From the NCBI RefSeq assembly GCF_055900595.2, contig NZ_CM148325.1: a stretch of 64,000 bases of DNA; one strand, written 5' to 3'. The position numbers and the translations under genes are program-made. The notes below the pieces were generated by a model, which had not been told where the DNA came from, did not search any database, and worked only from the letters and a program-made list of their open reading frames with translations. Positions 5,580 to 21,118 of the stretch are shown here, piece by piece. Numbering within the stretch: the first letter of the stretch is position 1; each line of letters opens with the position of its first letter.

Positions 5580-5587
5580 CCTTCCTG

Positions 5588-5627
5588 AAAATGCCCGGTC
5601 CTGGCGATCGGGCATTTCCATTTTTGA
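5588..5627. terminator. Bidirectional hairpin between convergent pitB and yghT
   Basis: Inverted repeat aaatgcccgg...ccgggcattt followed by a T-run (catttttg), in the 48-bp gap between pitB (+) and yghT (-). Confidence 0.5.
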
Positions 5628-6320
5628 CTAGTGATAACCACGCGCGGTCATAAAATCCGTAATCGCTTTTTCTGCATCAACCAGCACCTTTTCCAGTGGC
5701 TGATTAGCATCGATATCAACCAGTTGTGCACCGCCAAAGGTTAACTGTGGCGTTATGGCAATCTTCCTCGCCAGCGATTCCCGTTTATGGTCGGGTTTAC
5801 GCGCGCAGGCAACTTCAAGGTCAACATTGAGTTTGATGACCAGATCAGGTTTATGGCTCGCCATCCAGTGAAACGCTTTACGTTCCTGGCTTGCCAGCCA
5901 TGAGACAAACCGGCCGCCTTCAACGTTAGGCGGGAACACTGTACCATCGTAAGCGCCAGGAATTTGGTCCTGAGGATAACGGTCGGTTAGAACAATTAAC
6001 CCGCGACGACGACAGGCAAGCATATGACGAAAGCGCAGTAAGCGACGGGCGACAAACGCTGTAATTACCAGCGCCGGAACTGGCCCAGGCAATTTTTTTG
6101 CTGTTTTCACCTGATTTCGTTCAATTGTTTTATGTAAGGATTTTCCCATCAACGGTAATTTTGTCACTGCACGACCGACATTTCCGGCCTGTTTTCCTAA
6201 ATGAACTCTTTCGGCAGCACCATATTTTTCGACAACGGTAATGAGATGTTCACACACCGTTGACTTGCCTGAACCATCGCTACCAATAACGGCAATTAAT
6301 GGAGGTGTTATTGACTGCAT
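5628..6320 (-). CDS. yghT: Uncharacterised P-loop ATP-binding protein, NMP-kinase-like fold
   Basis: 230 aa; N-terminal Walker [10 protein letters not shown]; internal LTDRYPQD (DRY-type motif); paralogous to the next two genes. Confidence 0.8.
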
Positions 6321-6493
6321 GAATATATCCTTTAATTTAAATATCCATTAAAAATATTTATTTGGTTAATATGTTTTTATGAAAGCGTAATTCAGGTCAA
6401 TGTCACAATTAACCATTGTCACAATAAGGTTGAACGGATATTCTGAGCACGGACCACGTAATATTCAATACATTATTTGCTGCCGGGTTTTTC

Positions 6494-7207
6494 GTGAATC
6501 AACGTAATATGTCAATAATTAATTCCACGCCAGTGCGTGTTATTGCCATTGTAGGATGTGATGGTTCAGGTAAATCGACCCTCACGGCAAGCCTGGTAAA
6601 TGAACTGGCAGCAAGAATGCCAACAGAACACATTTATCTCGGGCAATCGTCCGGGCGAATTGGCGAATGGATTTCACAGCTCCCTGTTATTGGCGCACCT
6701 TTTGGGCGTTATTTGCGAAGTAAAGCGGCACATGTGCACGAAAAGCCCTTAACACCGCCTGGCAATATTACTGCGCTGGTTATCTATCTGCTTTCCTGCT
6801 GGCGGGCGTACAAGTTTCGCAAAATGTTGTGTAAAAGCCAGCAAGGCTATCTGCTCATCACCGACCGCTACCCGCAGGTTGAAGTGCCGGGTTTTCGCTT
6901 TGATGGCCCGCAATTGGCAAAAACCACGGGCGGTAACGGCTGGATAAAAATGTTAAGGCAGCGCGAGCTGAAGCTGTACCAATGGATGGCGTCTTATTTG
7001 CCCGTATTGTTGATTCGTCTTGGCATTGATGAACAAACCGCGTTTTCGCGTAAACCTGACCATCAACTGGCGGCGTTACAGGAAAAAATCGCCGTTACGC
7101 CGCAACTGACATTCAATGGCGCCGGGATCCTTGAACTGGATGGTCGGCAACCAGCCGATGAAATTATGCAAGCGTCACTACGCGCAATTCACGCCGCGCT
7201 TTCCTGA
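6494..7207 (+). CDS. yghS: Uncharacterised P-loop ATP-binding protein, NMP-kinase-like fold
   Basis: 237 aa; Walker A GCDGSGKST; ITDRYPQ; C-terminal SRKPDH...TPQLTF shared with yghT. Confidence 0.8.
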   Translation: MNQRNMSIINSTPVRVIAIVGCDGSGKSTLTASLVNELAARMPTEHIYLGQSSGRIGEWISQLPVIGAPFGRYLRSKAAHVHEKPLTPPGNITALVIYLLSCWRAYKFRKMLCKSQQGYLLITDRYPQVEVPGFRFDGPQLAKTTGGNGWIKMLRQRELKLYQWMASYLPVLLIRLGIDEQTAFSRKPDHQLAALQEKIAVTPQLTFNGAGILELDGRQPADEIMQASLRAIHAALS

Positions 7208-7238
7208 TCACCAAAATGGATAGGGGATGATTTAACGA

Positions 7239-7997
7239 ATGGATGCACTACAAACACAAACTGTTAATAGTACAACCGTGCCGCAGCCCAACTACATTCC
7301 GGGGCTGATTGCGGTGGTCGGGTGTGATGGCACCGGTAAATCCACGCTGACCACCGACCTGGTGAAATCGCTGCAACAACACTGGCAAACCGAGCGCCGC
7401 TATTTGGGGCTGCTCTCCGGCGAAGACGGCGACAAAATCAAACGATTGCCGTTGGTTGGCGTCTGGCTGGAACGGCGACTGGCGGCCAAATCCTCGAAAA
7501 CCCAAAGCATGAAAACCAAATCTCCAGCGCTATGGGCGGCGGTGATTATGTACTGCTTCTCGCTGCGAAGAATGGCGAATCTACGCAAGGTTCAGCGACT
7601 GGCGCAAAGTGGCGTTCTGGTGGTCAGCGATCGCTTCCCGCAGGCTGAAATTTCGGGCTTTTATTATGACGGACCGGGGATTGGCGTCGAGCGCGCGACC
7701 GGGAAAATCAACCAATTTCTGGCGCAGCGCGAGCGACAGTTATACCAACAAATGGCGCAGTATCGTCCTGAATTAATCATTCGTTTGGGGATTGATATTG
7801 ATACTGCCATCTCCCGCAAGCCTGACCATGACTATGCCGAGCTGCAGGACAAAATCGGCGTCATGTCGACGATTGGCTATAACGGCACAAAAATTCTTGA
7901 GATTGATTCCAGAGCGCCCTACAGCGAAGTGCTGGAACAGGCACAGAAGGCGGTTTCTCTGGTTGCCATCGTTTCTGACCGCCGAAGTTTAACTTAA
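7239..7997 (+). CDS. yghR: Uncharacterised P-loop ATP-binding protein, NMP-kinase-like fold
   Basis: 252 aa; Walker A GCDGTGKST; VSDRFPQ; SRKPDH motif; third paralog. Confidence 0.8.
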   Translation: MDALQTQTVNSTTVPQPNYIPGLIAVVGCDGTGKSTLTTDLVKSLQQHWQTERRYLGLLSGEDGDKIKRLPLVGVWLERRLAAKSSKTQSMKTKSPALWAAVIMYCFSLRRMANLRKVQRLAQSGVLVVSDRFPQAEISGFYYDGPGIGVERATGKINQFLAQRERQLYQQMAQYRPELIIRLGIDIDTAISRKPDHDYAELQDKIGVMSTIGYNGTKILEIDSRAPYSEVLEQAQKAVSLVAIVSDRRSLT

Positions 7998-8042
7998 GGC
8001 TGGCGGGATACTTTTTACTATCAACGATAAGGTCAGGCTGAA

Positions 8043-9392
8043 TTGGCGGGTTTTAACATCAAACATTGGTTTGCAGATGGCGCGTTTCGCACCATTATTC
8101 GCAATAGCGCCTGGTTAGGCTCCAGTAATGTCGTGAGCGCTTTGCTGGGTCTGTTGGCGCTCTCGTGTGCCGGTAAAGGGATGACGCCCGCCATGTTTGG
8201 CGTACTGGTGATTGTGCAATCGTACGCCAAGTCGATCAGCGATTTTATTAAGTTTCAGACATGGCAGTTGGTGGTGCAGTACGGAACGCCAGCCTTGACC
8301 AACAATAATCCGCAGCAATTTCGCAATGTCGTCTCATTTTCCTTCTCGTTGGATATCGTCAGCGGCGCGGTGGCGATTGTCGGCGGCATTGCCTTACTCC
8401 CTTTTCTTTCCCATTCATTAGGTCTGGATGACCAAAGCTTTTGGCTGGCAGCGCTGTATTGCACGCTCATTCCTTCAATGGCTTCCTCCACGCCGACCGG
8501 CATTCTGCGTGCGGTAGATAGCTTCGACTTAATTGCTGTACAGCAGGCGACGAAACCTTTTCTGCGCGCAGCGGGGAGCGTCGTTGCCTGGTATTTTGAC
8601 TTTGGTTTTGCGGGTTTTGTTATTGCCTGGTACGCCTCGAATCTTGTTGGCGGCACCATGTACTGGTGGTTTGCCGCACGTGAATTACGCCGCAGAAATA
8701 TCCATAACGCGTTCAAATTGAATCTGTTTGAGTCTGCCCGACACATCAAAGGCGCGTGGAGTTTTGTCTGGTCAACCAACATTGCCCATTCCATCTGGTC
8801 GGCGCGTAATTCGTGCAGCACAGTGTTGGTGGGGATCGTGTTAGGACCCGCTGCCGCCGGGTTATTTAAAATCGCCATGACATTCTTCGACGCCGCCGGA
8901 ACGCCAGCGGGTTTACTAGGTAAAAGTTTTTACCCAGAGGTGATGCGTTTAGATCCGCGCACCACCAGACCGTGGTTGTTAGGCGTGAAGTCCGGTTTAC
9001 TGGCGGGCGGAATCGGTATTCTGGTGGCGCTCGCGGTGTTGATCGTCGGCAAGCCGCTCATTTCGCTGGTGTTTGGCGTTAAGTATCTCGAAGCGTATGA
9101 CCTGATTCAGGTGATGCTGGGCGCAATTGTGATTTCGATGCTGGGCTTCCCACAGGAGTCATTGCTATTGATGGCGGGAAAACAGCGTGCTTTTCTCGTG
9201 GCGCAAACCATCGCCTCAATCGGCTACATCGTATTGCTGTTCATGTTCTGTCATCTGTTTGGCGTGCTGGGGGCTGCATTTGCTTACTTCGCTGGGCAAT
9301 GTCTGGATGTGGTGCTCTCGCTAATTCCAACCTTAAAGGCATTTTTTCAGCGCCATTCCTTGCTTTATAACGCAGCCGGAGAGAAATCCTGA
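8043..9392 (+). CDS. yghQ: MOP/Wzx-like polysaccharide or lipid flippase family inner-membrane protein
   Basis: Polytopic membrane protein (many hydrophobic helices across 449 codons). Start uncertain: the track uses a TTG at 8043; the first in-frame ATG is at 8181 but would remove the first predicted TM helix. Stop overlaps the next start (TGATG at 9389-9394). Confidence 0.75.
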   Translation: MAGFNIKHWFADGAFRTIIRNSAWLGSSNVVSALLGLLALSCAGKGMTPAMFGVLVIVQSYAKSISDFIKFQTWQLVVQYGTPALTNNNPQQFRNVVSFSFSLDIVSGAVAIVGGIALLPFLSHSLGLDDQSFWLAALYCTLIPSMASSTPTGILRAVDSFDLIAVQQATKPFLRAAGSVVAWYFDFGFAGFVIAWYASNLVGGTMYWWFAARELRRRNIHNAFKLNLFESARHIKGAWSFVWSTNIAHSIWSARNSCSTVLVGIVLGPAAAGLFKIAMTFFDAAGTPAGLLGKSFYPEVMRLDPRTTRPWLLGVKSGLLAGGIGILVALAVLIVGKPLISLVFGVKYLEAYDLIQVMLGAIVISMLGFPQESLLLMAGKQRAFLVAQTIASIGYIVLLFMFCHLFGVLGAAFAYFAGQCLDVVLSLIPTLKAFFQRHSLLYNAAGEKS

Positions 9393-10228
9393 TGATGAGA
9401 AAATATTTCCCGCTTGAGGCTAGCGAGCGTCTATTTGTTGCGATTGAAGAAGATGATGTCGTTGATGCACAGGTCAGTTTGCCGCCGACTATCGCACTAA
9501 GTTGTACCACCGAAATCATCCATGATAATTACGCGTTATGCCTGAAATTCTGGCTGGATGGTGTTAATCGTCAGGAGCTACTGCGTTTAATCCGCAAACA
9601 GGCGAAAGGCGATGAGCTGACGACAGACGAGCGCAAAAAGTATAAATACATGCGAGCGCGCTACAAGCATCTGCGCTTTGCGCAACGGCTGTATTTAAAG
9701 AAGCATCAGGCCGGATTTTTATTCGGCAAAACGACCGTTTTTTTGGGGCGTTTTCAGGACGGCTTTCGTAACGGTAAGAAAAATATTGTGTCGTATTACG
9801 GCAACCTGTTACGGGTTTATTTAAGCTCTCCGGTCTGGTCGTTGGTGAACTATTCATTACGCCATAGCCAGTTAGAAAGCGTAAGCGGTTTTATTGCCTA
9901 TCGGCAAAAGCAAATGCATACCCTGAAAGAGATAATTGCCAAACCGCGACTAACTGGCAGGGAATTTCATGATGTGCGAAAAATCATCAGCCAGCAGGTT
10001 TCTTATTACGACACCCTAAGATCGCTTGATCCTGAAAATAAAGAGGCGTTACAGATTTCCCGCTTCCTCGCCGCCATTAATGGCCTGATGGGGGATAAAC
10101 ACGACGACATGGTGGCGGATGATATGGAAAACCGCCAGTCGTATGATGCACCGATGGCGCTGGATAGCGATATTCGTCAGCGCTTAGAACTGCTGATTTC
10201 GCGTTTCCCACTCTATCCGGAGCAATAA
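9392..10228 (+). CDS. Hypothetical protein (278 aa), translationally coupled between yghQ and a YtfJ-like gene
   Basis: Intact ORF with 1-nt overlaps to both neighbours (yghQ stop / its ATG; its stop / next ATG); no motif I can assign; basic, soluble-looking. Confidence 0.6.
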   Translation: MMRKYFPLEASERLFVAIEEDDVVDAQVSLPPTIALSCTTEIIHDNYALCLKFWLDGVNRQELLRLIRKQAKGDELTTDERKKYKYMRARYKHLRFAQRLYLKKHQAGFLFGKTTVFLGRFQDGFRNGKKNIVSYYGNLLRVYLSSPVWSLVNYSLRHSQLESVSGFIAYRQKQMHTLKEIIAKPRLTGREFHDVRKIISQQVSYYDTLRSLDPENKEALQISRFLAAINGLMGDKHDDMVADDMENRQSYDAPMALDSDIRQRLELLISRFPLYPEQ

Positions 10229-10788
10229 TGCCATCTCGTTGGATTTTCGCTCTGATCATCGCACTCTTAGCGCCAGGCGCGGTGGCACACAATTTCGTCA
10301 CTGGTAAAACGGTTACCCCTGTTTATATCCAGGAAGGCGGTGAGTTGCTTCTGAATAGCGACGACGAAATTCACTACCAAAAGTGGAACAGCACACAGCT
10401 GGCGGGAAAAGTCCGCATTATTCAGTATATCGCCGGGCGTAAGTCGGCGAAGAAAAAGAACTCACTGTTAATTAAAGCGGTTGAAGCGGCAAACTTTCCG
10501 CAGGATCGTTTTCAGCCCACCACCATTGTGAACACCGATGATGCCATCTTTGGTACCGACTATTTTGTCGTTGGCAAAATCGAAAAAAATAAACGCCGCT
10601 ATCCATGGGCGCAATTCGTTATTGACGGCAATGGACAGGGACGTGTTGCCTGGCGCTTGCCGGAGCAGAGTTCAACCATTCTGGTGCTGAATAAAAACGG
10701 GCAAATTCAGTGGGCAAAGGACGGCAGCCTGACGCCGGAAGAGGTAGATCATGTCATTGCGCTGGCGCAGAAGCTGATCAATGAATAA
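10228..10788 (+). CDS. YtfJ-family periplasmic protein
   Basis: 186 aa with N-terminal signal peptide (MPSRWIFALIIALLAPGAVAHNF). Strong resemblance over the whole length to remembered E. coli YtfJ (...KTWNS.QL.GKVR..Q.IAGR.SAK..N..LI.A...A..P.DR.Q.TTIVNTDDAI...YPW.QF..D.NG... QWAKDG.LTPEEV...). Confidence 0.7.
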   Translation: MPSRWIFALIIALLAPGAVAHNFVTGKTVTPVYIQEGGELLLNSDDEIHYQKWNSTQLAGKVRIIQYIAGRKSAKKKNSLLIKAVEAANFPQDRFQPTTIVNTDDAIFGTDYFVVGKIEKNKRRYPWAQFVIDGNGQGRVAWRLPEQSSTILVLNKNGQIQWAKDGSLTPEEVDHVIALAQKLINE

Positions 10789-10818
10789 AAAACTCAAAGG
10801 ATTGAGGGCGTTAGTGAG

Positions 10819-11889
10819 ATGAAGCTGGTTGAACACTACATCATGCGTGGTACGCGCCGTCTGGTGCTGATTATCGTCGGTTTTCTGATCTTTATTTTCG
10901 CCAGCTACTCCGCACAGCGTTATCTGACCGAAGCGGCAAATGGGACATTAGCTCTTGATGTTGTGCTGGATATCGTTTTCTACAAAGTGCTGATTGCACT
11001 GGAGATGCTGTTACCTGTTGGACTATATGCTTCAGTTGGCGTGACGCTAGGGCAAATGTATACCGACTCGGAAATTACCGCTATCTCCGCGGCGGGGGGC
11101 AGTCCGGGACGCTTGTACAAAGCCGTTCTTTATCTGGCGATACCGCTAAGTATTTTTGTCACCCTTCTGTCGATGTATGGTCGTCCGTGGGCTTATGCGC
11201 AGATTTATCAACTGGAGCAACAGTCACAGTCGGAGCTGGATGTTCGCCAGTTGCGGGCAAAGAAATTTAACACTAACGATAACGGACGAATGATCCTTTC
11301 GCAGACGGTTGATCAGGATAATAATCGCCTGACTGACGCGCTGATTTATACTTCTACTGCCAATCGAACCCGCATTTTCCGCGCCCGTTCGGTTGATGTG
11401 GTTGACCCATCACCTGAGAAACCGACCGTTATGTTGCATAACGGGACCGCCTATCTTCTCGATCATCAGGGGCGTGACGACAACGAACAGATCTACCGTA
11501 ATCTGCAATTACATCTGAATCCGCTGGATCAAAGCCCTAACGTCAAACGCAAAGCAAAATCGGTCACGGAGCTGGCGCGCTCCGCCTTTCCTGCCGATCA
11601 TGCCGAACTGCAATGGCGACAAAGCCGTGGCCTGACAGCATTGTTGATGGCGCTGCTGGCCATTTCATTAAGTCGGGTAAAACCGCGGCAAGGGCGATTT
11701 TCAACGTTATTGCCACTGACGTTGCTGTTTATTGCCATTTTTTATGGCGGCGACGTCTGCCGTACGCTGGTGGCTAACGGCGCGATTCCCCTCATTCCTG
11801 GTTTGTGGTTAGTACCCGGACTCATGCTAATGGGCCTGCTGATGCTGGTCGCACGCGACTTCTCTTTGCTGCAGAAATTTTCCCGATGA
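10819..11889 (+). CDS. LptF/LptG-family (YjgP/YjgQ) permease, paralog 1
   Basis: 356 aa; N-terminal 3-TM bundle, central soluble (periplasmic beta-jellyroll-like) region, C-terminal TM bundle with RQGRFS motif reminiscent of LptF/LptG (NPRQGR); located outside the canonical lptFG locus. Confidence 0.75.
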   Translation: MKLVEHYIMRGTRRLVLIIVGFLIFIFASYSAQRYLTEAANGTLALDVVLDIVFYKVLIALEMLLPVGLYASVGVTLGQMYTDSEITAISAAGGSPGRLYKAVLYLAIPLSIFVTLLSMYGRPWAYAQIYQLEQQSQSELDVRQLRAKKFNTNDNGRMILSQTVDQDNNRLTDALIYTSTANRTRIFRARSVDVVDPSPEKPTVMLHNGTAYLLDHQGRDDNEQIYRNLQLHLNPLDQSPNVKRKAKSVTELARSAFPADHAELQWRQSRGLTALLMALLAISLSRVKPRQGRFSTLLPLTLLFIAIFYGGDVCRTLVANGAIPLIPGLWLVPGLMLMGLLMLVARDFSLLQKFSR

Positions 11890-12965
11890 ATGTTTTCAGC
11901 CGCTATTTAATCCGTCATCTCTTTCTCGGTTTTGCCGCCGCCGCAGGGCTATTGCTGCCGCTTTTTACCACCTTCAACCTGATTAACGAACTGGATGATG
12001 TCGGCCCGGGCGGTTATCGCTGGACCCAGGCGGTGCTGGTGGTGCTGATGACCTTACCGCGCACACTGGTCGAACTTTCGCCGTTTATCGCCTTATTGGG
12101 AGGGATTGTCGGCCTGGGGCAACTATCGAAAAACAGTGAGCTTACCGCCATTCGCAGCACGGGGTTTTCTATCTTCCGTATTGCACTGGTGGCGCTGGTT
12201 GCCGGGATATTGTGGACTGTTTCGTTAGGCGCGATAGATGAGTGGGTGGCGTCGCCATTGCAGCAACAGGCGCTGCAAATCAAATCGACTGCCACCGCGT
12301 TGGGGGAGGACGATGACATTACCGGCAATATGCTTTGGGCCAGGCGCGGTAATGAATTTGTGACGGTGAAATCGCTGAACGAGCAGGGCCAGCCTGTGGG
12401 CGTGGAGATATTTCATTATCGCGACGATCTCTCGCTCGAATCCTACATTTTTGCACGCAGTGCCTCCATTGAAGACGACAAAACATGGATCCTGCATGGT
12501 GTGAATCATAAAAAATGGTTGAATGGCAAAGAAACGCTGGAAACATCAGATAATCTTACCTGGCAATCGGCCTTCACCAGTATGAATCTTGAAGAGTTAT
12601 CGATGCCGGGAAATACTTTTTCTGTCCGTCAACTTAATCATTACATCCATTATTTGCAGGAAACTGGGCAACCCAGCAGCGAATACCGCCTTGCACTGTG
12701 GGAAAAACTGGGACAACCCATCCTGACCCTGGCGATGATTTTGCTGGCTGTGCCGTTTACCTTTAGTGCCCCGCGTTCGCCTGGGATGGGTAGCCGTCTC
12801 GCTGTAGGCGTCATCGTGGGCTTACTTACCTGGATCAGCTATCAAATCATGGTCAATCTGGGATTGCTATTTGCGTTGAGCGCACCTGTTACCGCGCTCG
12901 GTTTACCGGTAGCGTTTGTGCTGGTGGCGTTGAGCCTGGTGTATTGGTATGACAGACAACATTAA
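11886..12965 (+). CDS. LptF/LptG-family (YjgP/YjgQ) permease, paralog 2
   Basis: Start set at ATG 11886 (MNVFSRYLIRHLF...), overlapping the upstream stop by 4 nt (ATGA); same TM-soluble-TM architecture as the upstream gene. Confidence 0.75.
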   Translation: MNVFSRYLIRHLFLGFAAAAGLLLPLFTTFNLINELDDVGPGGYRWTQAVLVVLMTLPRTLVELSPFIALLGGIVGLGQLSKNSELTAIRSTGFSIFRIALVALVAGILWTVSLGAIDEWVASPLQQQALQIKSTATALGEDDDITGNMLWARRGNEFVTVKSLNEQGQPVGVEIFHYRDDLSLESYIFARSASIEDDKTWILHGVNHKKWLNGKETLETSDNLTWQSAFTSMNLEELSMPGNTFSVRQLNHYIHYLQETGQPSSEYRLALWEKLGQPILTLAMILLAVPFTFSAPRSPGMGSRLAVGVIVGLLTWISYQIMVNLGLLFALSAPVTALGLPVAFVLVALSLVYWYDRQH

Positions 12966-12999
12966 ACCCGCCGTGGCGCAACACCACAGCGGGCTCACA

Positions 13000-14172
13000 T
13001 TACTGCTTCAGAGTAGCGAACGCTTGAATGATGGCATCAATTTGCTCACGACTGTGGGCAGCGTTTACGCTACAGCGCAGCAGCGTGATGCCTGCAGGCG
13101 CGGCAGGTGGCAGGATAAGATTCACATAAACGCCCAGCGAAATAAGCTCGCGCCAGATGCGTAAACCTTCCTCTTTCGAACCGATTATTACTGGCACTAC
13201 CGGGCTAATATGTGAACTTAACTCATAATCCAGTTTTTGCAGACCGTCATACAGATGGTTGGCATTATCCATCAGCTTTTGCCGCAACTCTGGTTGTGAG
13301 GCAATGGTTCTTAACGACGAGCGCACGGTCGCAATGCAGGACGGAGAAGGAGAGGCGGTAAAAATATACGGGCGGCTGCCGTAGCGCAACACTTCCATCG
13401 CTTCCGAACCGACAGCAAAACCGCCAATCGAGGCCAGACTTTTACTGAAGGTACCAACGATAATATCCACATCATCTTCAACGCCAACGGCTTCAGCCAG
13501 TCCGCGCCCCGTTGCGCCTAACACGCCAAACGAATGCGCTTCATCGACAATCAAATAACCACCGAGACGACGTTTGATATCAACAATTTCCGCCAGCGGC
13601 GCAACGTCACCGAGCATACTGTAGATGCCTTCAACGATGATAATCGCCTCTTTTGCCCGTTCACCGAGGCGAACCATGCGCCGTTCCAGATCTTTAGCAT
13701 CGTTATGGCGGAAACGAATAATTTCCGCGCCACCGAGAGAACAGGCGTCATAAATACTGGCGTGGCTGTCGGCATCCAGTAACACCACGGCGTTATGGTC
13801 GGCAAGTGCGCTGATGACGCCTAAATTAGCGGTATAACCGGTTGAAAAAACGATAGCGGTAGGGCGATTAAAAAACTCGGCGATCTCTTTCTCTAACGCC
13901 AGATGCGGCGCATAACTGCCGTTTGCCATACGAGAACCGGTGGTGCCGGTGCCTTGGGCCGCTAACGCTGCCTGACCTTCGGCGATGGCATCATGATTAA
14001 AGGTTAAACCGAGATAATTATTGGTCCCGGCCAGAATCACTTTTTTATTGCCGATCCGACCTTCGGTGGCGGAATACACTTCATCAATACAGGTGCCAAA
14101 CGGTGTTAACCCGTTGTCACTAAATTGCAGTCGCTCGCCAGCAAGGCGCGCATATTTATCGTATAGCCCCAT
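13000..14172 (-). CDS. PLP-dependent alpha-oxoamine synthase (serine palmitoyltransferase / BioF / Kbl family)
   Basis: 390 aa; family-typical N-terminal GSRMANGSY.....LE.E.A.F, and PLP-lysine motif ...IVGTFSKSLASIGGF...; start overlaps the stop of the upstream carrier-protein gene. Confidence 0.85.
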   Translation of the reverse strand: MGLYDKYARLAGERLQFSDNGLTPFGTCIDEVYSATEGRIGNKKVILAGTNNYLGLTFNHDAIAEGQAALAAQGTGTTGSRMANGSYAPHLALEKEIAEFFNRPTAIVFSTGYTANLGVISALADHNAVVLLDADSHASIYDACSLGGAEIIRFRHNDAKDLERRMVRLGERAKEAIIIVEGIYSMLGDVAPLAEIVDIKRRLGGYLIVDEAHSFGVLGATGRGLAEAVGVEDDVDIIVGTFSKSLASIGGFAVGSEAMEVLRYGSRPYIFTASPSPSCIATVRSSLRTIASQPELRQKLMDNANHLYDGLQKLDYELSSHISPVVPVIIGSKEEGLRIWRELISLGVYVNLILPPAAPAGITLLRCSVNAAHSREQIDAIIQAFATLKQ

Positions 14173-14420
14173 TATTTATTCTCCAGCCATGGAAGTAGTG
14201 TTTCCATTAATTGCGCAGGGGTTTTGACATCCAGCAGAATATTAATAGGAATGGAAATATCGAATCTGTCTTCCAGCATCATTAAGAGATCCATCACTTT
14301 GATCGACTCCAGGCCAAGATCGTTGACGAGATCGCTGTCGGGCTTAATTTCCACACCGTTTTCGACCAAATCCTGTAAACAGGAAAGGATGTAATCCATT
14401 ACTATTTCACGATTTACCAT
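14172..14420 (-). CDS. Acyl carrier protein (phosphopantetheine-binding)
   Basis: 82 aa, acidic, with DLGLESIKVMDLLMMLEDRF resembling the ACP DSL/ESx attachment-site helix. Confidence 0.8.
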   Translation of the reverse strand: MVNREIVMDYILSCLQDLVENGVEIKPDSDLVNDLGLESIKVMDLLMMLEDRFDISIPINILLDVKTPAQLMETLLPWLENK

Positions 14421-14451
14421 AGAAACGTTAACACACCTTTAAACAAGACAA

Positions 14452-15366
14452 TCAAAATAGCCCGTTGCGTAATGCGTGTTCCAGGCTAATCCCGGGAAAC
14501 CAATTAATATCTTCAGAAATACGGTTATTACTTGCTGACCAGTCGGCGTGGGTTAATTCACGGATTTTCGAGCGGGTCAGCATAGGTTCTTTACCTGCCA
14601 GGCGACTCAACGCGGTACTGATATCCGCAAGGCAGGTGAGTACCGACAGAGGAATACCAACCATTCGAACGGAACCGCAACGGGCGTCGGCGGCAAGTTG
14701 CTGTACGCGTTGCCAGTCATAGCCGCCGGCGACGCCATCGCATAATTCATAGGTTTGCGTCTGTACAGTTTCGGCGCTTAACCACTGCCCCACGGCTTGC
14801 GCGAAATCGGTGACGTGCAGGAAAGAGAGCTGTGTATCTGGCGCACCAAGTCGTGGCAGCAGGCCGCGCAGCATCCAGTCAAACAGCGGTTTTAACTCTT
14901 TATCGCCGGGACCATACACGGCTGTCGGGCGAAAAATGCCCAGCGTAATTTCGTCAGCCATTGCGGTCAGTCGTTGTTCGGCGACGTGTTTGGAATTTGC
15001 GTACCAGGAGAGTTCGGGATGACGCGCCGCCAGCGAAGAGATAAACAGAAAACGTTGGCAAAAGCCGCTCTCTTTTGCCGCTTGCATCAGGCGCAGGCTG
15101 CCGTCAACGTTACAGCGGGTAAAAATCTCTTCTTTGTGTCCGCGCACTTGTCCGGCGCAATGGACCACCGCGCTGGCTCCGGCAACCAGTTCGCTAAGCG
15201 AATGTGTATCTTCCAGCGAACCGCGCACCCAGATGAGATTATCATTGACGTGAGCGCGGGCAGTACGCGTCAATGCGCGAACGTGAAAGCCGCGGGCGAG
15301 CAGGTTATCGATAATATATTTACCGATAAACCCGGTAGCGCCCGTCACCGCGACAGTTTGATTCAT
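14452..15366 (-). CDS. NAD(P)-dependent epimerase/dehydratase-family (extended SDR) reductase
   Basis: 304 aa with N-terminal Rossmann motif VAVTGATGFIGKYI; 4-nt overlap with the upstream AMP-ligase gene. Confidence 0.8.
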   Translation of the reverse strand: MNQTVAVTGATGFIGKYIIDNLLARGFHVRALTRTARAHVNDNLIWVRGSLEDTHSLSELVAGASAVVHCAGQVRGHKEEIFTRCNVDGSLRLMQAAKESGFCQRFLFISSLAARHPELSWYANSKHVAEQRLTAMADEITLGIFRPTAVYGPGDKELKPLFDWMLRGLLPRLGAPDTQLSFLHVTDFAQAVGQWLSAETVQTQTYELCDGVAGGYDWQRVQQLAADARCGSVRMVGIPLSVLTCLADISTALSRLAGKEPMLTRSKIRELTHADWSASNNRISEDINWFPGISLEHALRNGLF

Positions 15367-17111
15367 GCCAGGGATTCCTGCACATGAAGGCTTGCAGCAT
15401 AAGCCTTCTGATAACGTTTTTTCGCTTCCGCACGGGCAGGCTTGCCGGAGGACGTTCGGGGAATACTGTGGGGCGGCAACAGATCGATAGCCGCGGTTAC
15501 GCCAAATTCGCTTTGGATCCGTGCTGCCAGTGCGTGGATAAGCTGCCCACGACGTTCTTCGTCGCTGATCCTACACTGGATCTGCAGAATGATTTTTTCC
15601 TGGGCGGTAACAAAAGCAATCGCATCGCCAGAATGAATTTCCGGTTCCTGTTCCGCAATATATTCAATATCCTGCGGCCAGATATTACGGCCACGAATAA
15701 TAATCAGATCTTTAATGCGTCCGGTGACATACAGATAACCGTCCAGCAGATAACCGAGGTCGCCGGTATCTAACCAGCCCGTCGCGGCAATCTCGTCTTG
15801 CGAAACCTGGTCGCCAAAGTAACCGCTCATCAGGCTGGGGCCGGAGATGCAAATATGGCCTACCACACGTTCCGCGACCGGCATACCTGCTTCATTGCGG
15901 ATTTCAATGCCATGTTCCGGCAACGCTTTACCGCAGTTGACGAAAGTCGATACGGCGCGTGTTTCAGCACCCGGCGCGACGGCTTTGCCCTGATATTCAA
16001 GGATGTCGCGATCCACTTCGTTAACCACAACCCCGGAGGCTTCATCAGAGAAGCTGACAGCCAGCGCATTTTCTGCCAGTCCGTAGCACGGCATGAACGT
16101 TTTATCGTCAAAGTTAACCTGACGGAAACATTCAGCGAATTGATGGAGTTGTTCTGCGGAGATGGGTTCTGCACCAATACCAGCGACGCGCCAGCAGGAA
16201 AGATCCAGTTCAGCGAGATCTTTTTCATTCACGCGGCGCTGGCACAATTCATAGCCAAACGGCGGCGCAACGGAAACGGTGCCGCGATTTTTACTGATCA
16301 ATTTAAGCCATTGCAGAGGACGCATGGCAAAATCCTGAGTGCGCAAATAATCTACTGAAAGCTGCGTGGCGACGGGGGTCAGGAGAAAGCCGACCAGTCC
16401 CATATCATGGTAGAAAGGCAGCCAGGAGACGCAGCGGTCGCCAGGGCGTAATTTAATGCCATCGTGGCTTATAGCACGTAGATTAGCCATCACTTCGCGA
16501 TGGGTGATAATGACGCCACGGGGAAAACGGGTGCTGCCGGAGGTGTACTGGAGGTAGGCGATATCGTTCGGAACTGGATGCTGGAGTGCAACATCGGCTT
16601 CCGGTAATGCCTTAAACCAGGCGTGGCTTAAAACATGTAATTCGGGGTTGTTATGCGTAGCGGCATTGACCAGTGGCAACCACTCATCACCAGTGATAAT
16701 GGCTGCGGGCTGGCAACTTGCCAGTAAACCCTGCAGTTTGGCGCTCCAGGAATCCCGCTGACCGATGCCCATTGGAATCGCCAACGGGACGGCGACTAAG
16801 CCGGCATACTGGCAGGAAAAAAAAGCCTCTACGAACCCGCTACTGGTTTCGGCAATCAGCGCCACGCGATCGCCTTTTTTCAGGTTCAGCGATAACAACC
16901 GCTTCGCACCAGCTTCGGCACGCGCTTTTAACGTCTGATATTCCAGTTGATCTTCAAGTTGGCAACGTCTGTCATAAAAATTCATTCCGGCGCTACTCAG
17001 AGCGGCGTAGTCCAAAGCATCAACCAGCGTTGGAAAATCGGCATAGCGCATAGGTAGGGAATGCGTAAAGATTTTATTAGACATATACACCACGAAAAAA
17101 TTGGATATCAA
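15363..17111 (-). CDS. AMP-dependent synthetase/ligase (fatty-acyl-AMP ligase / acyl-ACP synthetase-like)
   Basis: 582 aa with the adenylate-forming signature YTSGSTRFPRGV (consensus YTSGSTGxPKGV) and downstream GYG/ETG-type core motifs; exact start (17111 vs 17084) uncertain. Confidence 0.85.
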   Translation of the reverse strand: MISNFFVVYMSNKIFTHSLPMRYADFPTLVDALDYAALSSAGMNFYDRRCQLEDQLEYQTLKARAEAGAKRLLSLNLKKGDRVALIAETSSGFVEAFFSCQYAGLVAVPLAIPMGIGQRDSWSAKLQGLLASCQPAAIITGDEWLPLVNAATHNNPELHVLSHAWFKALPEADVALQHPVPNDIAYLQYTSGSTRFPRGVIITHREVMANLRAISHDGIKLRPGDRCVSWLPFYHDMGLVGFLLTPVATQLSVDYLRTQDFAMRPLQWLKLISKNRGTVSVAPPFGYELCQRRVNEKDLAELDLSCWRVAGIGAEPISAEQLHQFAECFRQVNFDDKTFMPCYGLAENALAVSFSDEASGVVVNEVDRDILEYQGKAVAPGAETRAVSTFVNCGKALPEHGIEIRNEAGMPVAERVVGHICISGPSLMSGYFGDQVSQDEIAATGWLDTGDLGYLLDGYLYVTGRIKDLIIIRGRNIWPQDIEYIAEQEPEIHSGDAIAFVTAQEKIILQIQCRISDEERRGQLIHALAARIQSEFGVTAAIDLLPPHSIPRTSSGKPARAEAKKRYQKAYAASLHVQESLA

Positions 17112-17454
17112 AAATAAAATGACAATAATGCGGTGGATTATATAGGCATAAAAGATAAATGAGATAGTATTTTCATCAGTGTGAAAATGAACATTGATTT
17201 AAATAATGAGTTTGAGTTTTTTGTTTTTATTGTGAATGATATTTAATTTATGAATGTATTAAGAAGAAGCCTTGTCCGGTCGCCTTAAATCGACAAAAGG
17301 CATTGTGGCGCTTCTGTGTAGTCTCTGACCTTATCGTAATCATTAATAAATGCTATTTATTCGTCGTTTGTATTCATTGGGTTGATTATTAAGGTGCCGT
17401 TCGTTGCTGTTGCAACCTGTTTGTCACCGTTAATTATTTGTTACCCACAGAACT

Positions 17455-18597
17455 ATGGAATGCGATCTGCTGATGATTAAAATTGAAAAAGTAATTAATA
17501 AAAATGACCTTAAGGCATTTATCGCTTTTCCGTCATCACTTTATCCCGACGATCCAAACTGGATACCCCCTTTATTCATTGAACGCAACGAGCATTTGTC
17601 TGCGAAAAATCCGGGGACGGACCATATCATCTGGCAGGCGTGGGTGGCAAAAAAAGCCGGGCAGATAGTTGGGCGAATTACCGCGCAAATCGATACCTTG
17701 CACCGTGAGCGTTACGGTGAAGATACCGGTCATTTCGGCATGATTGACGCCATTGATGATCCGCAGGTTTTTGCCGCGTTGTTTGGCGCAGCGGAAGCGT
17801 GGTTGAAGTCACAAGGTGCAAGTAAGATCAGCGGTCCTTTCAGCCTGAATATCAATCAGGAAAGCGGATTACTGATTGAAGGTTTCGATACACCACCCTG
17901 TGCGATGATGCCGCACGGTAAACCGTGGTATGCCGCGCATATTGAACAATTGGGTTATCACAAAGGCATTGATTTACTAGCGTGGTGGATGCAGCGAACC
18001 GATCTCACTTTCTCTCCGGCGCTAAAAAAACTGATGGATCAGGTGCGTAAGAAGGTGACCATTCGCTGCATCAATCGCCAGCGGTTTGCCGAAGAGATGC
18101 AGATCCTGCGTGAGATTTTCAACTCTGGCTGGCAGCACAACTGGGGATTTGTGCCGTTTACCGAACATGAATTCGCGACTATGGGCGATCAACTTAAATA
18201 TCTGGTGCCGGACGATATGATCTACATCGCTGAGATTGATTCTGCACCCTGCGCGTTTATTGTTGGCTTGCCAAACATCAACGAGGCGATTGCCGATCTG
18301 AACGGATCGCTCTTTCCCTTCGGCTGGGCAAAATTGCTGTGGCGTTTAAAAGTCAGCGGTGTGCGAACTGCGCGAGTACCGCTGATGGGCGTGCGGGACG
18401 AGTATCAGTTTAGCCGCATCGGCCCGGTGATTGCGCTGTTATTGATTGAAGCCTTACGCGATCCGTTTGCCCGCCGGAAGATCGATGCGCTGGAAATGTC
18501 ATGGATCCTCGAAACCAATACAGGCATGAATAACATGCTGGAACGCATTGGGGCAGAGCCGTACAAGCGTTACCGATTGTATGAAAAGCAGATTTGA
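17455..18597 (+). CDS. yghO: YghO-family protein, intact; possible GNAT-like N-acyltransferase
   Basis: 380-aa intact ORF where K-12 (as I recall) carries only a yghO pseudogene next to glcC; acyltransferase assignment is my inference from fold-like sequence features, not a motif I can pin down. Start could also be Met at 17473. Confidence 0.65.
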   Translation: MECDLLMIKIEKVINKNDLKAFIAFPSSLYPDDPNWIPPLFIERNEHLSAKNPGTDHIIWQAWVAKKAGQIVGRITAQIDTLHRERYGEDTGHFGMIDAIDDPQVFAALFGAAEAWLKSQGASKISGPFSLNINQESGLLIEGFDTPPCAMMPHGKPWYAAHIEQLGYHKGIDLLAWWMQRTDLTFSPALKKLMDQVRKKVTIRCINRQRFAEEMQILREIFNSGWQHNWGFVPFTEHEFATMGDQLKYLVPDDMIYIAEIDSAPCAFIVGLPNINEAIADLNGSLFPFGWAKLLWRLKVSGVRTARVPLMGVRDEYQFSRIGPVIALLLIEALRDPFARRKIDALEMSWILETNTGMNNMLERIGAEPYKRYRLYEKQI

Positions 18598-18603
18598 TGG
18601 CAG

Positions 18604-19368
18604 TCACCCCTGCTTCATCTCCAGCGGCACCGCCGAGCGAATCAAATGGTGGCCTTCCAGCTCGATATCGTGGAGATTCTTTTTCACGGTCCGCACATGA
18701 TCGCGTGCTGCGCGCTGGGCGACGTGCGGCAGCCGCTGCAACACCGCGTTGTAGATCCGCGCATGCTGGCGATCGATCTGCTTTTTTTGCTGTGGTCGAT
18801 GGTAGAGATTATTTACGCTGGCAAACACTGAATTAAACATCAGATCGGTCAATGATTGCAGCGTAAACACCAACACCTGATTGTGAGAAGCCTGACAAAT
18901 GGCGAGATGGAAAGCGTGATCCAACTGCGCATGTTCGATCAGCGAAATCTCTTTGTTGTTCTCACTGGCGGCGAGCATTTTTTCATAACAGCGGGTTATC
19001 ACAACAAAATCAGCCTGGGTTCCCAGCGTTGCCGCAAGCCTTGCCGATTCCCCCTCCAGCAATGCGCGAACGTCGAGCAGATCGTACAGCGTTCGCGGCT
19101 GCGTGCTGAACAGATGAATTAGCGGGCTGGTATCCTGCACCCGATTAAGCCGTGCGACACGAGAATCGCGACCCTGCGCTGTTTCAATAATCCCGCGCCC
19201 GCGCAGCACGGTCAGCCCTTCACGCAGTGCGGAGCGTGAGAAGCCGAGCTTTTCACACAGTCGACGTTCCGAGGGAAGCGGCTGACCGACCTTCAGTACG
19301 CCGTCGATAATTAACCGTTCGATACTCTCTGCAACCACTTCGCAAATAGGGCGACGTTCATCTTTCAT
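18604..19368 (-). CDS. glcC: GntR-family transcriptional activator of the glycolate operon
   Basis: Start placed at internal Met (MKDERRPICEVVAES..., ATG complement 19366-19368) giving 254 aa; N-terminal wHTH (GntR) and C-terminal FCD-like domain; divergent from glcD. Confidence 0.9.
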   Translation of the reverse strand: MKDERRPICEVVAESIERLIIDGVLKVGQPLPSERRLCEKLGFSRSALREGLTVLRGRGIIETAQGRDSRVARLNRVQDTSPLIHLFSTQPRTLYDLLDVRALLEGESARLAATLGTQADFVVITRCYEKMLAASENNKEISLIEHAQLDHAFHLAICQASHNQVLVFTLQSLTDLMFNSVFASVNNLYHRPQQKKQIDRQHARIYNAVLQRLPHVAQRAARDHVRTVKKNLHDIELEGHHLIRSAVPLEMKQG

Positions 19369-19618
19369 TCCCGGACCTCGTGCACAGGTAGGACCAATTT
19401 TTCTGTTCTTAACTCGCAAAACACGCACATCACGTAAGTGATTATGTTACATCAATTTAACATTAAGTTAACCAAGGCAAGGTCACAGAGCTGGAAAAAA
19501 AATGGTCTGACCGGTAGCTAAAGAGATAGACGAAAACGAAAAGCCCGCTTAATAACTGTTCACAGAAGCAGCGCGCAAAAATCAGCTGCCACACAACACA
19601 ACAAAGCGAAGCCTACTC
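19369..19618. promoter_or_regulatory. Divergent glcC / glcDEFGBA promoter-operator region
   Basis: 250-bp intergenic region between divergently oriented glcC and glcD; promoter elements not individually mapped here. Confidence 0.5.
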
Positions 19619-21118
19619 ATGAGCATCTTGTACGAAGAGCGTCTTGATGGCGCTTTACCCGATGTCGACCGCACATCGGTACTGATGGCACTGCGTGAGC
19701 ATGTCCCTGGACTTGAGATCCTGCATACCGATGAGGAGATCATTCCTTACGAGTGTGACGGGTTGAGCGCGTATCGCACGCGTCCATTACTGGTTGTTCT
19801 GCCTAAGCAAATGGAACAGGTGACAGCGATTCTGGCTGTTTGTCACCGCCTGCGTGTATCGGTGGTGACCCGTGGTGCAGGCACCGGGCTTTCTGGTGGC
19901 GCGCTGCCGCTGGAAAAAGGTGTGTTGTTGGTGATGGCGCGCTTTAAAGAGATCCTCGACATTAACCCCATTGGTCGCCGCGCGCGCGTGCAGCCGGGCG
20001 TGCGTAACCTGGCGATCTCCCAGGCCGTTGCGTCGCATAATCTCTATTACGCTCCGGATCCTTCCTCACAAATCGCCTGTTCGATTGGCGGCAACGTGGC
20101 GGAAAATGCCGGTGGCGTTCACTGCCTGAAATATGGTCTGACCGTACATAACCTGCTGAAAATTGAAGTGCAAACGCTGGACGGCGAGGCGCTGACGCTG
20201 GGATCGGATGCGCTGGATTCGCCTGGTTTTGACCTGCTGGCGCTGTTCACCGGATCGGAAGGTATGCTCGGCGTGACCACCGAAGTGACGGTAAAACTGC
20301 TGCCGAAGCCGCCCGTGGCGCGGGTTCTGTTAGCCAGCTTTGACTCGGTAGAAAAAGCCGGACTTGCGGTTGGTGACATCATCGCCAATGGCATTATCCC
20401 CGGCGGGCTGGAGATGATGGATAACCTGTCGATCCGCGCAGCGGAAGATTTTATACATGCCGGTTATCCCGTCGACGCCGAAGCGATTTTGTTATGCGAG
20501 CTGGACGGCGTGGAGTCTGACGTACAGGAAGACTGCGAGCGGGTTAACGACATCTTGTTGAAAGCGGGCGCGACTGACGTCCGGCTGGCACAGGACGAAG
20601 CAGAGCGCGTACGTTTCTGGGCCGGTCGCAAAAATGCGTTCCCTGCGGTAGGACGAATCTCCCCGGATTACTACTGCATGGATGGCACCATCCCGCGCCG
20701 TGCCCTGCCTGGCGTACTGGAAGGCATTGCCCGTTTATCGCAGCAATATGATTTACGTGTTGCTAACGTCTTTCATGCCGGAGACGGCAACATGCACCCG
20801 TTAATCCTTTTCGATGCCAACGAACCCGGTGAATTTGCCCGCGCGGAAGAGCTGGGCGGGAAGATCCTCGAACTCTGCGTTGAAGTTGGCGGCAGCATCA
20901 GTGGGGAACATGGCATCGGGCGCGAAAAAATCAATCAAATGTGCGCCCAGTTCAACAGCGATGAAATCACGACCTTCCATGCGGTCAAGGCGGCGTTTGA
21001 TCCCGATGGTTTGCTGAACCCTGGGAAAAACATTCCCACGCTACACCGCTGTGCTGAATTTGGTGCCATGCATGTGCATCACGGTCATTTACCTTTCCCT
21101 GAACTGGAGCGTTTCTGA
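19619..21118 (+). CDS. glcD: Glycolate oxidase FAD-binding subunit
   Basis: 499 aa; FAD-binding PCMH-type domain (GAGTGLSGGA), FAD-linked oxidase C-terminal domain; first gene of glc operon. Confidence 0.95.
   Translation: MSILYEERLDGALPDVDRTSVLMALREHVPGLEILHTDEEIIPYECDGLSAYRTRPLLVVLPKQMEQVTAILAVCHRLRVSVVTRGAGTGLSGGALPLEKGVLLVMARFKEILDINPIGRRARVQPGVRNLAISQAVASHNLYYAPDPSSQIACSIGGNVAENAGGVHCLKYGLTVHNLLKIEVQTLDGEALTLGSDALDSPGFDLLALFTGSEGMLGVTTEVTVKLLPKPPVARVLLASFDSVEKAGLAVGDIIANGIIPGGLEMMDNLSIRAAEDFIHAGYPVDAEAILLCELDGVESDVQEDCERVNDILLKAGATDVRLAQDEAERVRFWAGRKNAFPAVGRISPDYYCMDGTIPRRALPGVLEGIARLSQQYDLRVANVFHAGDGNMHPLILFDANEPGEFARAEELGGKILELCVEVGGSISGEHGIGREKINQMCAQFNSDEITTFHAVKAAFDPDGLLNPGKNIPTLHRCAEFGAMHVHHGHLPFPELERF

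Follow-up and report, generated by a model that had tools for sequence, protein, structure and literature searches.

A probable dihydroceramide pathway locus in non-K-12 Escherichia coli

Results

Organization of the locus

The window that we analyzed is a 64,000-nt stretch of E. coli contig NZ_CM148325.1 (RefSeq assembly GCF_055900595.2). According to its ORF listing, positions 13000–17111 hold four intact minus-strand reading frames coding for a ligase, an SDR, an ACP and a synthase, and these are accompanied by the neighbors shown in Table 1. The families that the original prediction had assigned to the four genes from the sequence are borne out, with HMM E-values far beyond chance for the synthase (2.9e-179) and the ligase (2.5e-263), and the three motifs that it quoted are all present, with TFSKS in the synthase, GATGFIGKY in the SDR and YTSGSTRFPRGV in the ligase. 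Its description of tightly overlapping genes is accurate for two junctions, an ATGA with a 4-nt overlap between aasR and the SDR gene and a TAATG with a 1-nt overlap between acpR and spt, but not for the step from the SDR gene to acpR, where there is a 31-nt gap.

The 5' boundary of the ligase gene also needs revision. Position 17111 is merely the TTG start of the longest ORF (15363–17111, 582 aa), whereas RefSeq starts the protein at ATG 17051 (562 aa). An N-terminal comparison of 18 orthologous loci showed that the 11 residues preceding the RefSeq Met persist and that eight of the loci have L, I, Q or V in place of this Met. Because the upstream residues are kept while the RefSeq Met varies, the true start of aasR is probably ATG 17084.

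The region between aasR and yghO is low in GC (0.34 in the 17000–17499 bin versus ∼0.52 in the flanks), and an Rfam scan of positions 5000–20000, the intergenic region included, matched no family. As promoter consensus matches in this region were no commoner than in shuffled sequence, we treat its regulatory function as presumptive. At the other end of the block, the hairpin between spt and lptG2 folds as RNA with −28.1 kcal/mol (z = −5.6), a stability reached by 0 of 200 shuffles, and is terminator-like on both strands.

Table 1. Features in and around the locus (positions are those of the window).
Feature	Position	Strand	Description
yghT	5628–6320	−	candidate accessory module; P-loop protein
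yghS	6494–7207		candidate accessory module; P-loop protein
yghR	7239–7997		candidate accessory module; P-loop protein
yghQ-like MOP flippase	8043–9392		candidate accessory module
hyp278	9392–10228		278-aa hypothetical protein, helical; candidate accessory module
YtfJ-family protein	10228–10788		candidate accessory module
lptF2	10819–11889	+	LPS-export permease paralog
lptG2	11886–12965	+	LPS-export permease paralog; convergent with spt
GC-rich hairpin	12963–12997		34-nt gap between the convergent spt and lptG2 stop codons; 16-bp stem
spt	13000–14172	−	390 aa; PLP-dependent alpha-oxoamine synthase, serine palmitoyltransferase; Lys244 within TFSKS
acpR	14172–14420	−	82 aa; specialized acyl carrier protein; predicted phosphopantetheine Ser39 in LGLESI
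cerR/epi	14452–15366	−	304 aa; extended-SDR (NDUFA9-like) reductase; GATGFIGKY
aasR	15363–17084	−	573 aa from the probable ATG 17084; fatty acyl-AMP ligase-type acyl-AcpR synthetase
aasR-yghO divergent intergenic region	17085–17454		AT-rich; presumed promoter/regulatory
yghO	17455–18597	+	380 aa; predicted bCerS-type N-acyltransferase (tandem GNAT)

The same locus in BL21(DE3)

In BL21(DE3) the locus is represented by ECD_02850–ECD_02854 (yghO/aca, aasR, epi, acpR, spt), tags that we matched to the current RefSeq tags by gene order and product names. The gene order is common to both strains, between glcC/yghO and lptG/lptF, and the proteins are 99.7% (yghO), 98.2% (aasR), 97.0% (epi), 100% (acpR, ECD_02853) and 99.0% (spt) identical, with strain-level substitutions only, such as the four in Spt (A64S, S292T, D315G and E335D). 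According to Padilla-Gomez et al. 2022 (PMC9386255), SPT-Ec extracts convert L-[14C]serine and palmitoyl-AcpR to a 3-oxo-sphinganine-like lipid, and co-expression of AasR-Ec, AcpR-Ec and SPT-Ec yields the same lipid in vivo; the E. coli products were identified by TLC co-migration only. Since BL21(DE3) cells with empty vectors gave no such lipid in these experiments (PMC9386255), the chromosomal locus appears to be silent in standard culture. A 2026 preprint also draws a sphingolipid locus with LptF/G paralogs for E. coli UTI89. Given the RefSeq spt annotation, the published biochemistry and the UTI89 drawing, the cassette is already described.

Assignment of Spt as a serine palmitoyltransferase

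Spt, whose gene carries the name spt in RefSeq, scores 595.8 bits against the curated NCBIfam serine palmitoyltransferase model NF047599 (cut-off 500), whereas it stays below the cut-offs of the sister models for BioF (TIGR00858, 333/426), Kbl (NF005394, 294/460; TIGR01822, 246/493), CqsA-type enzymes (219/428) and ALAS (217/339). Within the SPT models, the beta-proteobacterial type was passed and those of the alpha-proteobacterial (426 bits, cut-off 670) and CFB types (337 bits, cut-off 640) were not. The closest relatives with solved structures are the Sphingomonas paucimobilis and S. wittichii SPTs (PDB 2JG2 and 2X8U) at 372 bits. More distant are Bacteroidota/delta-proteobacterial SPTs such as Sphingobacterium 3A2B (262 bits), which PMC9386255 places in a separate subgroup, and the sulfonolipid cysteate acyltransferase (202 bits), although all share the chemistry of long-chain-base-forming alpha-oxoamine synthases. 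The catalytic His/Asp/His/Arg set and the PLP Schiff-base Lys align with those of S. paucimobilis SPT, and H137, D210, H213, K244 and R366 vary little or not at all in both of our homologue alignments. The profile-HMM comparison foreseen by the original prediction came out in its favor for the ligase as well, which exceeds the cut-off for fatty acyl-AMP ligases.

Two other readings of the synthase were weighed. Older annotations name it 8-amino-7-oxononanoate synthase, and given the common alpha-oxoamine synthase superfamily it could be a BioF/Kbl paralog of biotin or threonine metabolism with unrelated neighbors. The curated HMM cut-offs rule out BioF or Kbl identity, PDB chains of E. coli Kbl and BioF and of other Kbls reach only 177–199 bits (Kbl ∼199, AONS ∼182) against 372 for SPT, and across many phyla spt is linked with acpR (adjoining it in 78 of 80 loci), the SDR gene (65 of 80) and aasR (64 of 80), which leaves this reading practically without a chance. 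Alternatively, the synthase could accept an amino acid other than serine, such as alanine or glycine, and make an undescribed amino-lipid. What speaks for this is that Arg378 of S. paucimobilis SPT, which contacts the serine carboxylate, is Leu354 in the window Spt. However, all 80 related loci have a hydrophobic residue at position 354 (L in 52, I in 10, V in 8, M in 6 and F in 4), and the serine-using BL21 enzyme has Leu there as well, so the exchange is ruled out as a mark of a non-serine substrate. With passage of the curated SPT equivalog model and the incorporation of L-[14C]serine by BL21 Spt extracts (PMC9386255), we consider another amino acid highly improbable. The substrate, which the original prediction had left open, is thus very probably serine.

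AcpR, AasR, CerR/epi and YghO

AcpR is a small ACP encoded directly upstream of spt that matches ACP models weakly (∼35 bits, with housekeeping ACP cut-offs of ∼70). Its E. coli form takes up the phosphopantetheine label beta-[3H]alanine (PMC9386255). AasR scores 874.6 bits against the fatty acyl-AMP ligase model NF006624 (cut-off 600) and carries the adenylation motif noted above. In the same paper, Caulobacter AasR acylates its cognate AcpR in vitro, not CoA or AcpP, and AasR-Ec fails with AcpR-Cc. Selectivity of AasR-Ec for its own AcpR is suggested by the product formed on co-expression.

The SDR matches Pfam Epimerase (PF01370, E = 5e-23), and many NDUFA9 complex I subunits are among its PDB matches. 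The TGxxGFxG motif (T8, G9, G12, F13, G15), S110/S111 and Y122xxxK126 are kept in 17 orthologues, including that of a Caulobacter MAG. The gene lies between aasR and acpR and is 34% identical (E = 3e-34) to L073:6675–7526 of this MAG, at the CerR position; PMC9386255 states that ECD_02852 "might encode" a 3-keto reductase. These similarities point to a reductase activity for E. coli CerR/epi.

Sequence-profile and phmmer searches with YghO gave no match in Pfam, NCBIfam or PDB. Its AF2 model (pLDDT 90.3) matches tandem-GNAT N-acyltransferases in Foldseek with E = 3e-15 and TM of 0.6–0.7; for this protein, fold comparison alone worked. Over 375 aa, YghO shares 43% identity with the gene at the bCerS position of the Caulobacter MAG, next after its lptG2-like gene, and in 49 of 80 loci yghO is found no more than 10 kb from spt. 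PMC9386255 pairs yghO with CC_1154 and assigns the E. coli activity only as "might encode". YghO may thus be the acyltransferase, and its proposed role as a pathway partner gains from the tandem-GNAT model, the homology to the Caulobacter-locus gene and the linkage to spt.

Comparison with Caulobacter and the LptF2/G2 pair

Five enzymes are common to the E. coli locus and Caulobacter crescentus (AasR, CerR, AcpR, Spt and bCerS; CC_1165–CC_1162 and CC_1154). The C. crescentus locus has the same aasR-SDR-acpR-spt order and also contains an LptF/G paralog pair. The Caulobacter MAG agrees with the window in gene order too, and identities between the two are 55% for spt, 44% for aasR, 43% for yghO, 42% for acpR and 34% for the SDR. 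Within 10 kb of spt, the window has no DAG-kinase-type ceramide kinase (CpgB), other Cpg head-group genes or LptC2; where Caulobacter has these, E. coli carries yghQRST, the 278-aa helical protein and the YtfJ-family protein. Furthermore, native sphingolipid production has been demonstrated for Caulobacter, whereas the products of the E. coli locus come from co-expression or cell extracts only.

The lptF2-lptG2 pair scores 317.5 bits (TIGR04407) and 306.8 bits (TIGR04408), and 37 of the 80 loci have such a pair next to spt. Caulobacter LptF2/G2 are essential if spt is present and bind LptB. By analogy the E. coli pair is likely a sphingolipid exporter, with export itself deduced from this likeness.

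Distribution and selection

The genes could be intact and cryptic, with no useful expression, no lipid in nature and a locus kept by hitch-hiking. This would fit the empty-vector result with BL21(DE3) (PMC9386255), the AT-rich intergenic region, the absence of the block from about a quarter of complete E. coli genomes and from K-12, which lost it via an IS5-associated deletion, and our finding no report of a native E. coli sphingolipid in a literature search of limited reach. Yet 4061 of 5426 complete E. coli genomes carry the block intact, mostly at 95–99% identity, conservation of the locus extends to Hafnia, Citrobacter, Pseudocitrobacter, Shimwellia, Pluralibacter, Cedecea and Rosenbergiella, and dN/dS versus BL21 is 0.01–0.13 in all seven genes tested. 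On balance we regard a cryptic locus as unlikely, and native expression of the E. coli genes is presumed.

Discussion

E. coli is the reference Gram-negative bacterium and is sphingolipid-free in the textbook view. The genes aasR-cerR-acpR-spt and yghO provide most non-K-12 E. coli with the predicted enzymes for ceramide-type lipids; they are already annotated and the key enzymes have been studied biochemically. The region very probably encodes the "rhodobacterial" dihydroceramide pathway as it occurs in E. coli. AasR would adenylate a free long-chain fatty acid and load it onto the phosphopantetheine arm of AcpR, and Spt would use PLP to condense the acyl-AcpR with L-serine to 3-oxo-sphinganine with loss of CO2. 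The divergently transcribed YghO would then N-acylate the sphingoid base and CerR/epi would reduce the 3-keto group, two steps whose order is disputed in the literature, giving dihydroceramide as the predicted product. The convergent lptF2-lptG2 pair would probably take the lipid out of the inner membrane so that it can be exported. The Caulobacter-like, ACP-dependent route to a sphingoid base or ceramide that the original prediction proposed stands on the curated HMMs, the synteny and homology with Caulobacter, the YghO model and the biochemistry on 97–100% identical BL21(DE3) proteins (PMC9386255).

Because the operon was annotated and its first three enzymes studied, the locus as a finding adds little. 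New here are the tandem-GNAT model of YghO with its homology to the Caulobacter MAG gene, the dN/dS values, the probable aasR start at 17084 and the spt-linked yghQRST/hyp278 module. About three quarters of complete E. coli genomes keep the locus under purifying selection, K-12 having lost it, and knowing when it is expressed and which lipid it yields would be of consequence for outer-membrane biology and for interaction with the host. We can put forward, as a tentative and still rather doubtful proposal, that in settings which laboratory culture does not mimic, wild non-K-12 E. coli and its relatives among the Enterobacterales produce a native outer-membrane sphingolipid that has so far escaped detection. 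Its head group would come from co-inherited proteins (the P-loop proteins YghR, YghS and YghT, the flippase YghQ and the helical 278-aa protein) instead of Caulobacter-type Cpg enzymes, and its export would run via LptB-LptF2G2.

The linked yghQRST/hyp278 genes are concrete candidates for such head-group steps. A Pfam search with the 278-aa protein was empty, and a CHAD domain, its best Foldseek match to solved structures, was rejected as non-significant (E = 0.037). YghS gave generic P-loop matches only, and no PDB relative by sequence. Linkage suggests that the accessory module (5628–10788) may be part of the sphingolipid pathway: it occurs together with spt in Enterobacterales, Luteibacter, Dyella and two MAGs, and Luteibacter has aasR-SDR-acpR-spt-yghQ-hyp278 as a colinear series on a single strand.

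Identity of the four proteins

When compared with NCBIfam models, Spt passed the 500-bit cut-off of NF047599, the equivalog for serine palmitoyltransferase, with 595.8 bits and remained under the cut-offs for BioF (333 versus 426), Kbl (294 versus 460), CqsA-type synthase and ALAS. Against solved structures it matched Sphingomonas SPT chains at 372 bits, Kbl at ~199 and AONS at ~182. Alignments with representatives of 50%-identity clusters showed that the PLP lysine K244 is conserved together with H137, D210, H213 and R366. The original prediction had named placement of the synthase with BioF or Kbl as one result that would speak against it; since the SPT cut-off is passed, the BioF and Kbl cut-offs are both failed and the catalytic residues are kept, the enzyme does not fall there.

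Leu354 of Spt aligns with Arg378 of the S. paucimobilis enzyme, and we considered whether this marks a change of substrate. We rejected this reading because the site is hydrophobic in all 80 loci that we compared (from named genomes of Enterobacterales, Nitrosomonadales, Nitrospirota, Xanthomonadales, Desulfobacterota, Gemmatimonadota and Caulobacter) and because the BL21 enzyme, which uses serine, has Leu there as well. Judging from these alignments, Leu354 is thus a clade trait.

The ligase reached 874.6 bits with NF006624, the NCBIfam model for fatty acyl-AMP ligases (cut-off 600). AcpR matches the NCBIfam ACP models weakly, as is expected of a specialised carrier. The SDR is an extended SDR of the Epimerase family with many NDUFA9 complex I subunits among its PDB relatives, and 17 orthologues retain its TGxxGFxG motif, S110/S111 and Y122xxxK126.

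Operon layout and gene boundaries

All four predicted minus-strand genes are intact, and the motifs TFSKS, GATGFIGKY and YTSGSTRFPRGV were each recovered in the translations. Junction sequences confirm tight coupling by overlaps for ligase and SDR (ATGA) and for ACP and synthase (TAATG), whereas the SDR and ACP genes are separated by a 31-nt gap.

Features of the locus (ORFs from the six-frame ORF list)
Feature	Position	Strand	Description
Flanking module	5628-10788		yghT, yghS, yghR, yghQ-like MOP flippase, hyp278, YtfJ-family periplasmic protein; linked to spt
hyp278	9392-10228		278-aa hypothetical protein
lptF2/lptG2	10819-12965		RefSeq lptF, lptG ("LPS export ABC transporter permease"); pass TIGR04407 and TIGR04408 cut-offs
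Hairpin	12963-12997		GC-rich, 16-bp; in 34-nt gap between convergent spt/lptG2 stop codons; -28.1 kcal/mol, z = -5.6
spt (synthase)	13000-14172	minus	390 aa, intact ORF
acpR (ACP)	14172-14420	minus	82 aa, intact ORF
SDR	14452-15366	minus	304 aa, intact ORF
aasR (ligase)	15363-17111	minus	582 aa from first possible start
aasR/yghO intergenic region	17085-17454		divergent, 370 bp, AT-rich, GC ~0.34

The predicted ligase 5' end at 17111 did not hold, being simply the TTG of the longest ORF, and RefSeq starts aasR at ATG 17051. Comparison of upstream translations in 18 orthologous loci showed that ~11 residues 5' of the RefSeq Met are kept, with the pattern MS-x-x-x-x-T-H-S-L-P in Enterobacterales, and that eight of these loci have L, I, Q or V where RefSeq places the Met. 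This comparison therefore points to ATG 17084 as the most likely aasR start, in which case the RefSeq AasR protein is probably 11 residues short.

The GC-rich hairpin, which is probably a bidirectional terminator, lies where transcription of spt and of lptG2 converges and keeps the two units apart. At the other end, the region between aasR and yghO has the AT-rich composition that targets of xenogeneic silencing typically show, and such silencing might be a reason for the silence of the locus in culture.

The locus in other E. coli strains and its published biochemistry

The block is identical (100%) to that of E. coli KY 1497. Of 5426 complete E. coli genomes, 4061 carry it at a coverage of at least 80%, and its genes are already labelled in RefSeq. 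Exactly this locus is treated by Padilla-Gomez et al. 2022 (PMC9386255) as the BL21(DE3) genes aasR (ECD_02851), epi (ECD_02852), acpR (ECD_02853), spt (ECD_02854) and aca, which is yghO (ECD_02850). We fetched the BL21(DE3) locus and found protein identities of 98.2% for aasR, 97.0% for SDR, 100% for acpR, 99.0% for spt and 99.7% for yghO. Their paper describes incorporation of beta-[3H]alanine by AcpR-Ec, poor use of palmitoyl-CoA and acyl-AcpP by SPT-Ec, failure of Caulobacter AcpR to serve AasR-Ec, and formation of a 3-oxo-sphinganine-like lipid in vivo upon co-expression of AasR-Ec, AcpR-Ec and SPT-Ec.

The functional interpretation originally given to the cassette is thus essentially right, but its novelty is not upheld, as the locus has been annotated and published. 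For the first step, the BL21(DE3) work has made the statement that substrate and product are unknown outdated. The locus is already known and of low interest as a discovery.

Proposed pathway and export

Results on near-identical proteins, or else family membership, indicate that AasR activates free fatty acid and loads it on AcpR, and that Spt converts acyl-AcpR and serine to 3-oxo-sphinganine. YghO may then N-acylate the base and the SDR may reduce the 3-keto group, steps whose order is disputed in the literature, with LptF2/G2, probably together with the housekeeping LptB, as putative exporter of the lipid.

YghO matched nothing in Pfam, NCBIfam or a PDB sequence search, and the K-12 annotation lists it as a putative DNA-binding regulator. 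Its AlphaFold model (pLDDT 90.3, built from 33 syntenic homologues) resembles tandem-GNAT N-acyltransferases (E ~3e-15, TM 0.6-0.7), a predicted fold that contradicts the regulator annotation. Over 375 residues, YghO further shares 43% identity with the product of the gene right after an lptG2-like gene in a Caulobacter MAG, a homologue occupying the CC_1154/bCerS position.

Because the locus paralogs pass both LptF and LptG model cut-offs, RefSeq names them lptF and lptG, and genomes with the locus therefore seem to have two lptFG pairs. A 2026 preprint (10.64898/2026.04.12.717747) draws the sphingolipid operons of E. coli UTI89 with LptF/G homologues and reports that Caulobacter LptF2/G2 bind LptB and are essential if spt is present. 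A sphingolipid export role of lptF2/lptG2, masked by the RefSeq annotation, is probable.

In PMC9386255, BL21(DE3) with empty vectors gave no sphingoid lipid on TLC, and the literature searched contained no description of a sphingolipid made natively by E. coli.

The flanking yghQRST/hyp278 module

The flanking module is the most interesting lead. It co-occurs with spt in Enterobacterales, Luteibacter, Dyella and two MAGs, and in Luteibacter (locus L057) aasR-SDR-acpR-spt-yghQ-hyp278 are colinear on one strand. RefSeq labels YghT, YghS and YghR dTMP kinase, although these three P-loop paralogs are divergent and score 25-32 bits, far under the dTMP-kinase cut-off of 83. Linkage makes the module a candidate for head-group addition and flipping, distinct from the Caulobacter cpg genes. 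The DAG-kinase-type ceramide kinase of Caulobacter lacks a homologue in the E. coli locus, and thus the E. coli head group may differ from that of Caulobacter.

Within the module, hyp278 gave no match in Pfam or NCBIfam. It is modelled confidently as an all-helical protein (pLDDT 90.4), and its best Foldseek matches to solved structures, which are non-significant, include three CHAD-domain proteins, 6qv5 (E = 0.037), 3e0s and 6rn5. CHAD domains bind polyphosphate. The conserved basic stretch of hyp278 is RARYKHLRFAQRLY.

Conservation and loss in K-12

Within 10 kb of spt we found acpR in 78 of the 80 loci, SDR in 65, aasR in 64, yghO in 49, and lptF2 and lptG2 in 37 each. By the Nei-Gojobori method, the window compared with BL21 gives dN/dS values of 0.01-0.13 for spt, acpR, SDR, aasR, yghO, lptF2 and lptG2, which indicates purifying selection rather than decay across these seven coding sequences. 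In K-12 MG1655 an IS5 element (IS5LO/insH9) lies between the yghO 5' end and a truncated yghQ (locus L003, NC_000913 3129043-3132408, corresponding to window ~8300-17500). Lost to it are aasR, SDR, acpR, spt, lptG2, lptF2, the ytfJ-like gene, hyp278 and part of yghQ; the pathway is missing from this reference strain because IS5 stands in for the block.
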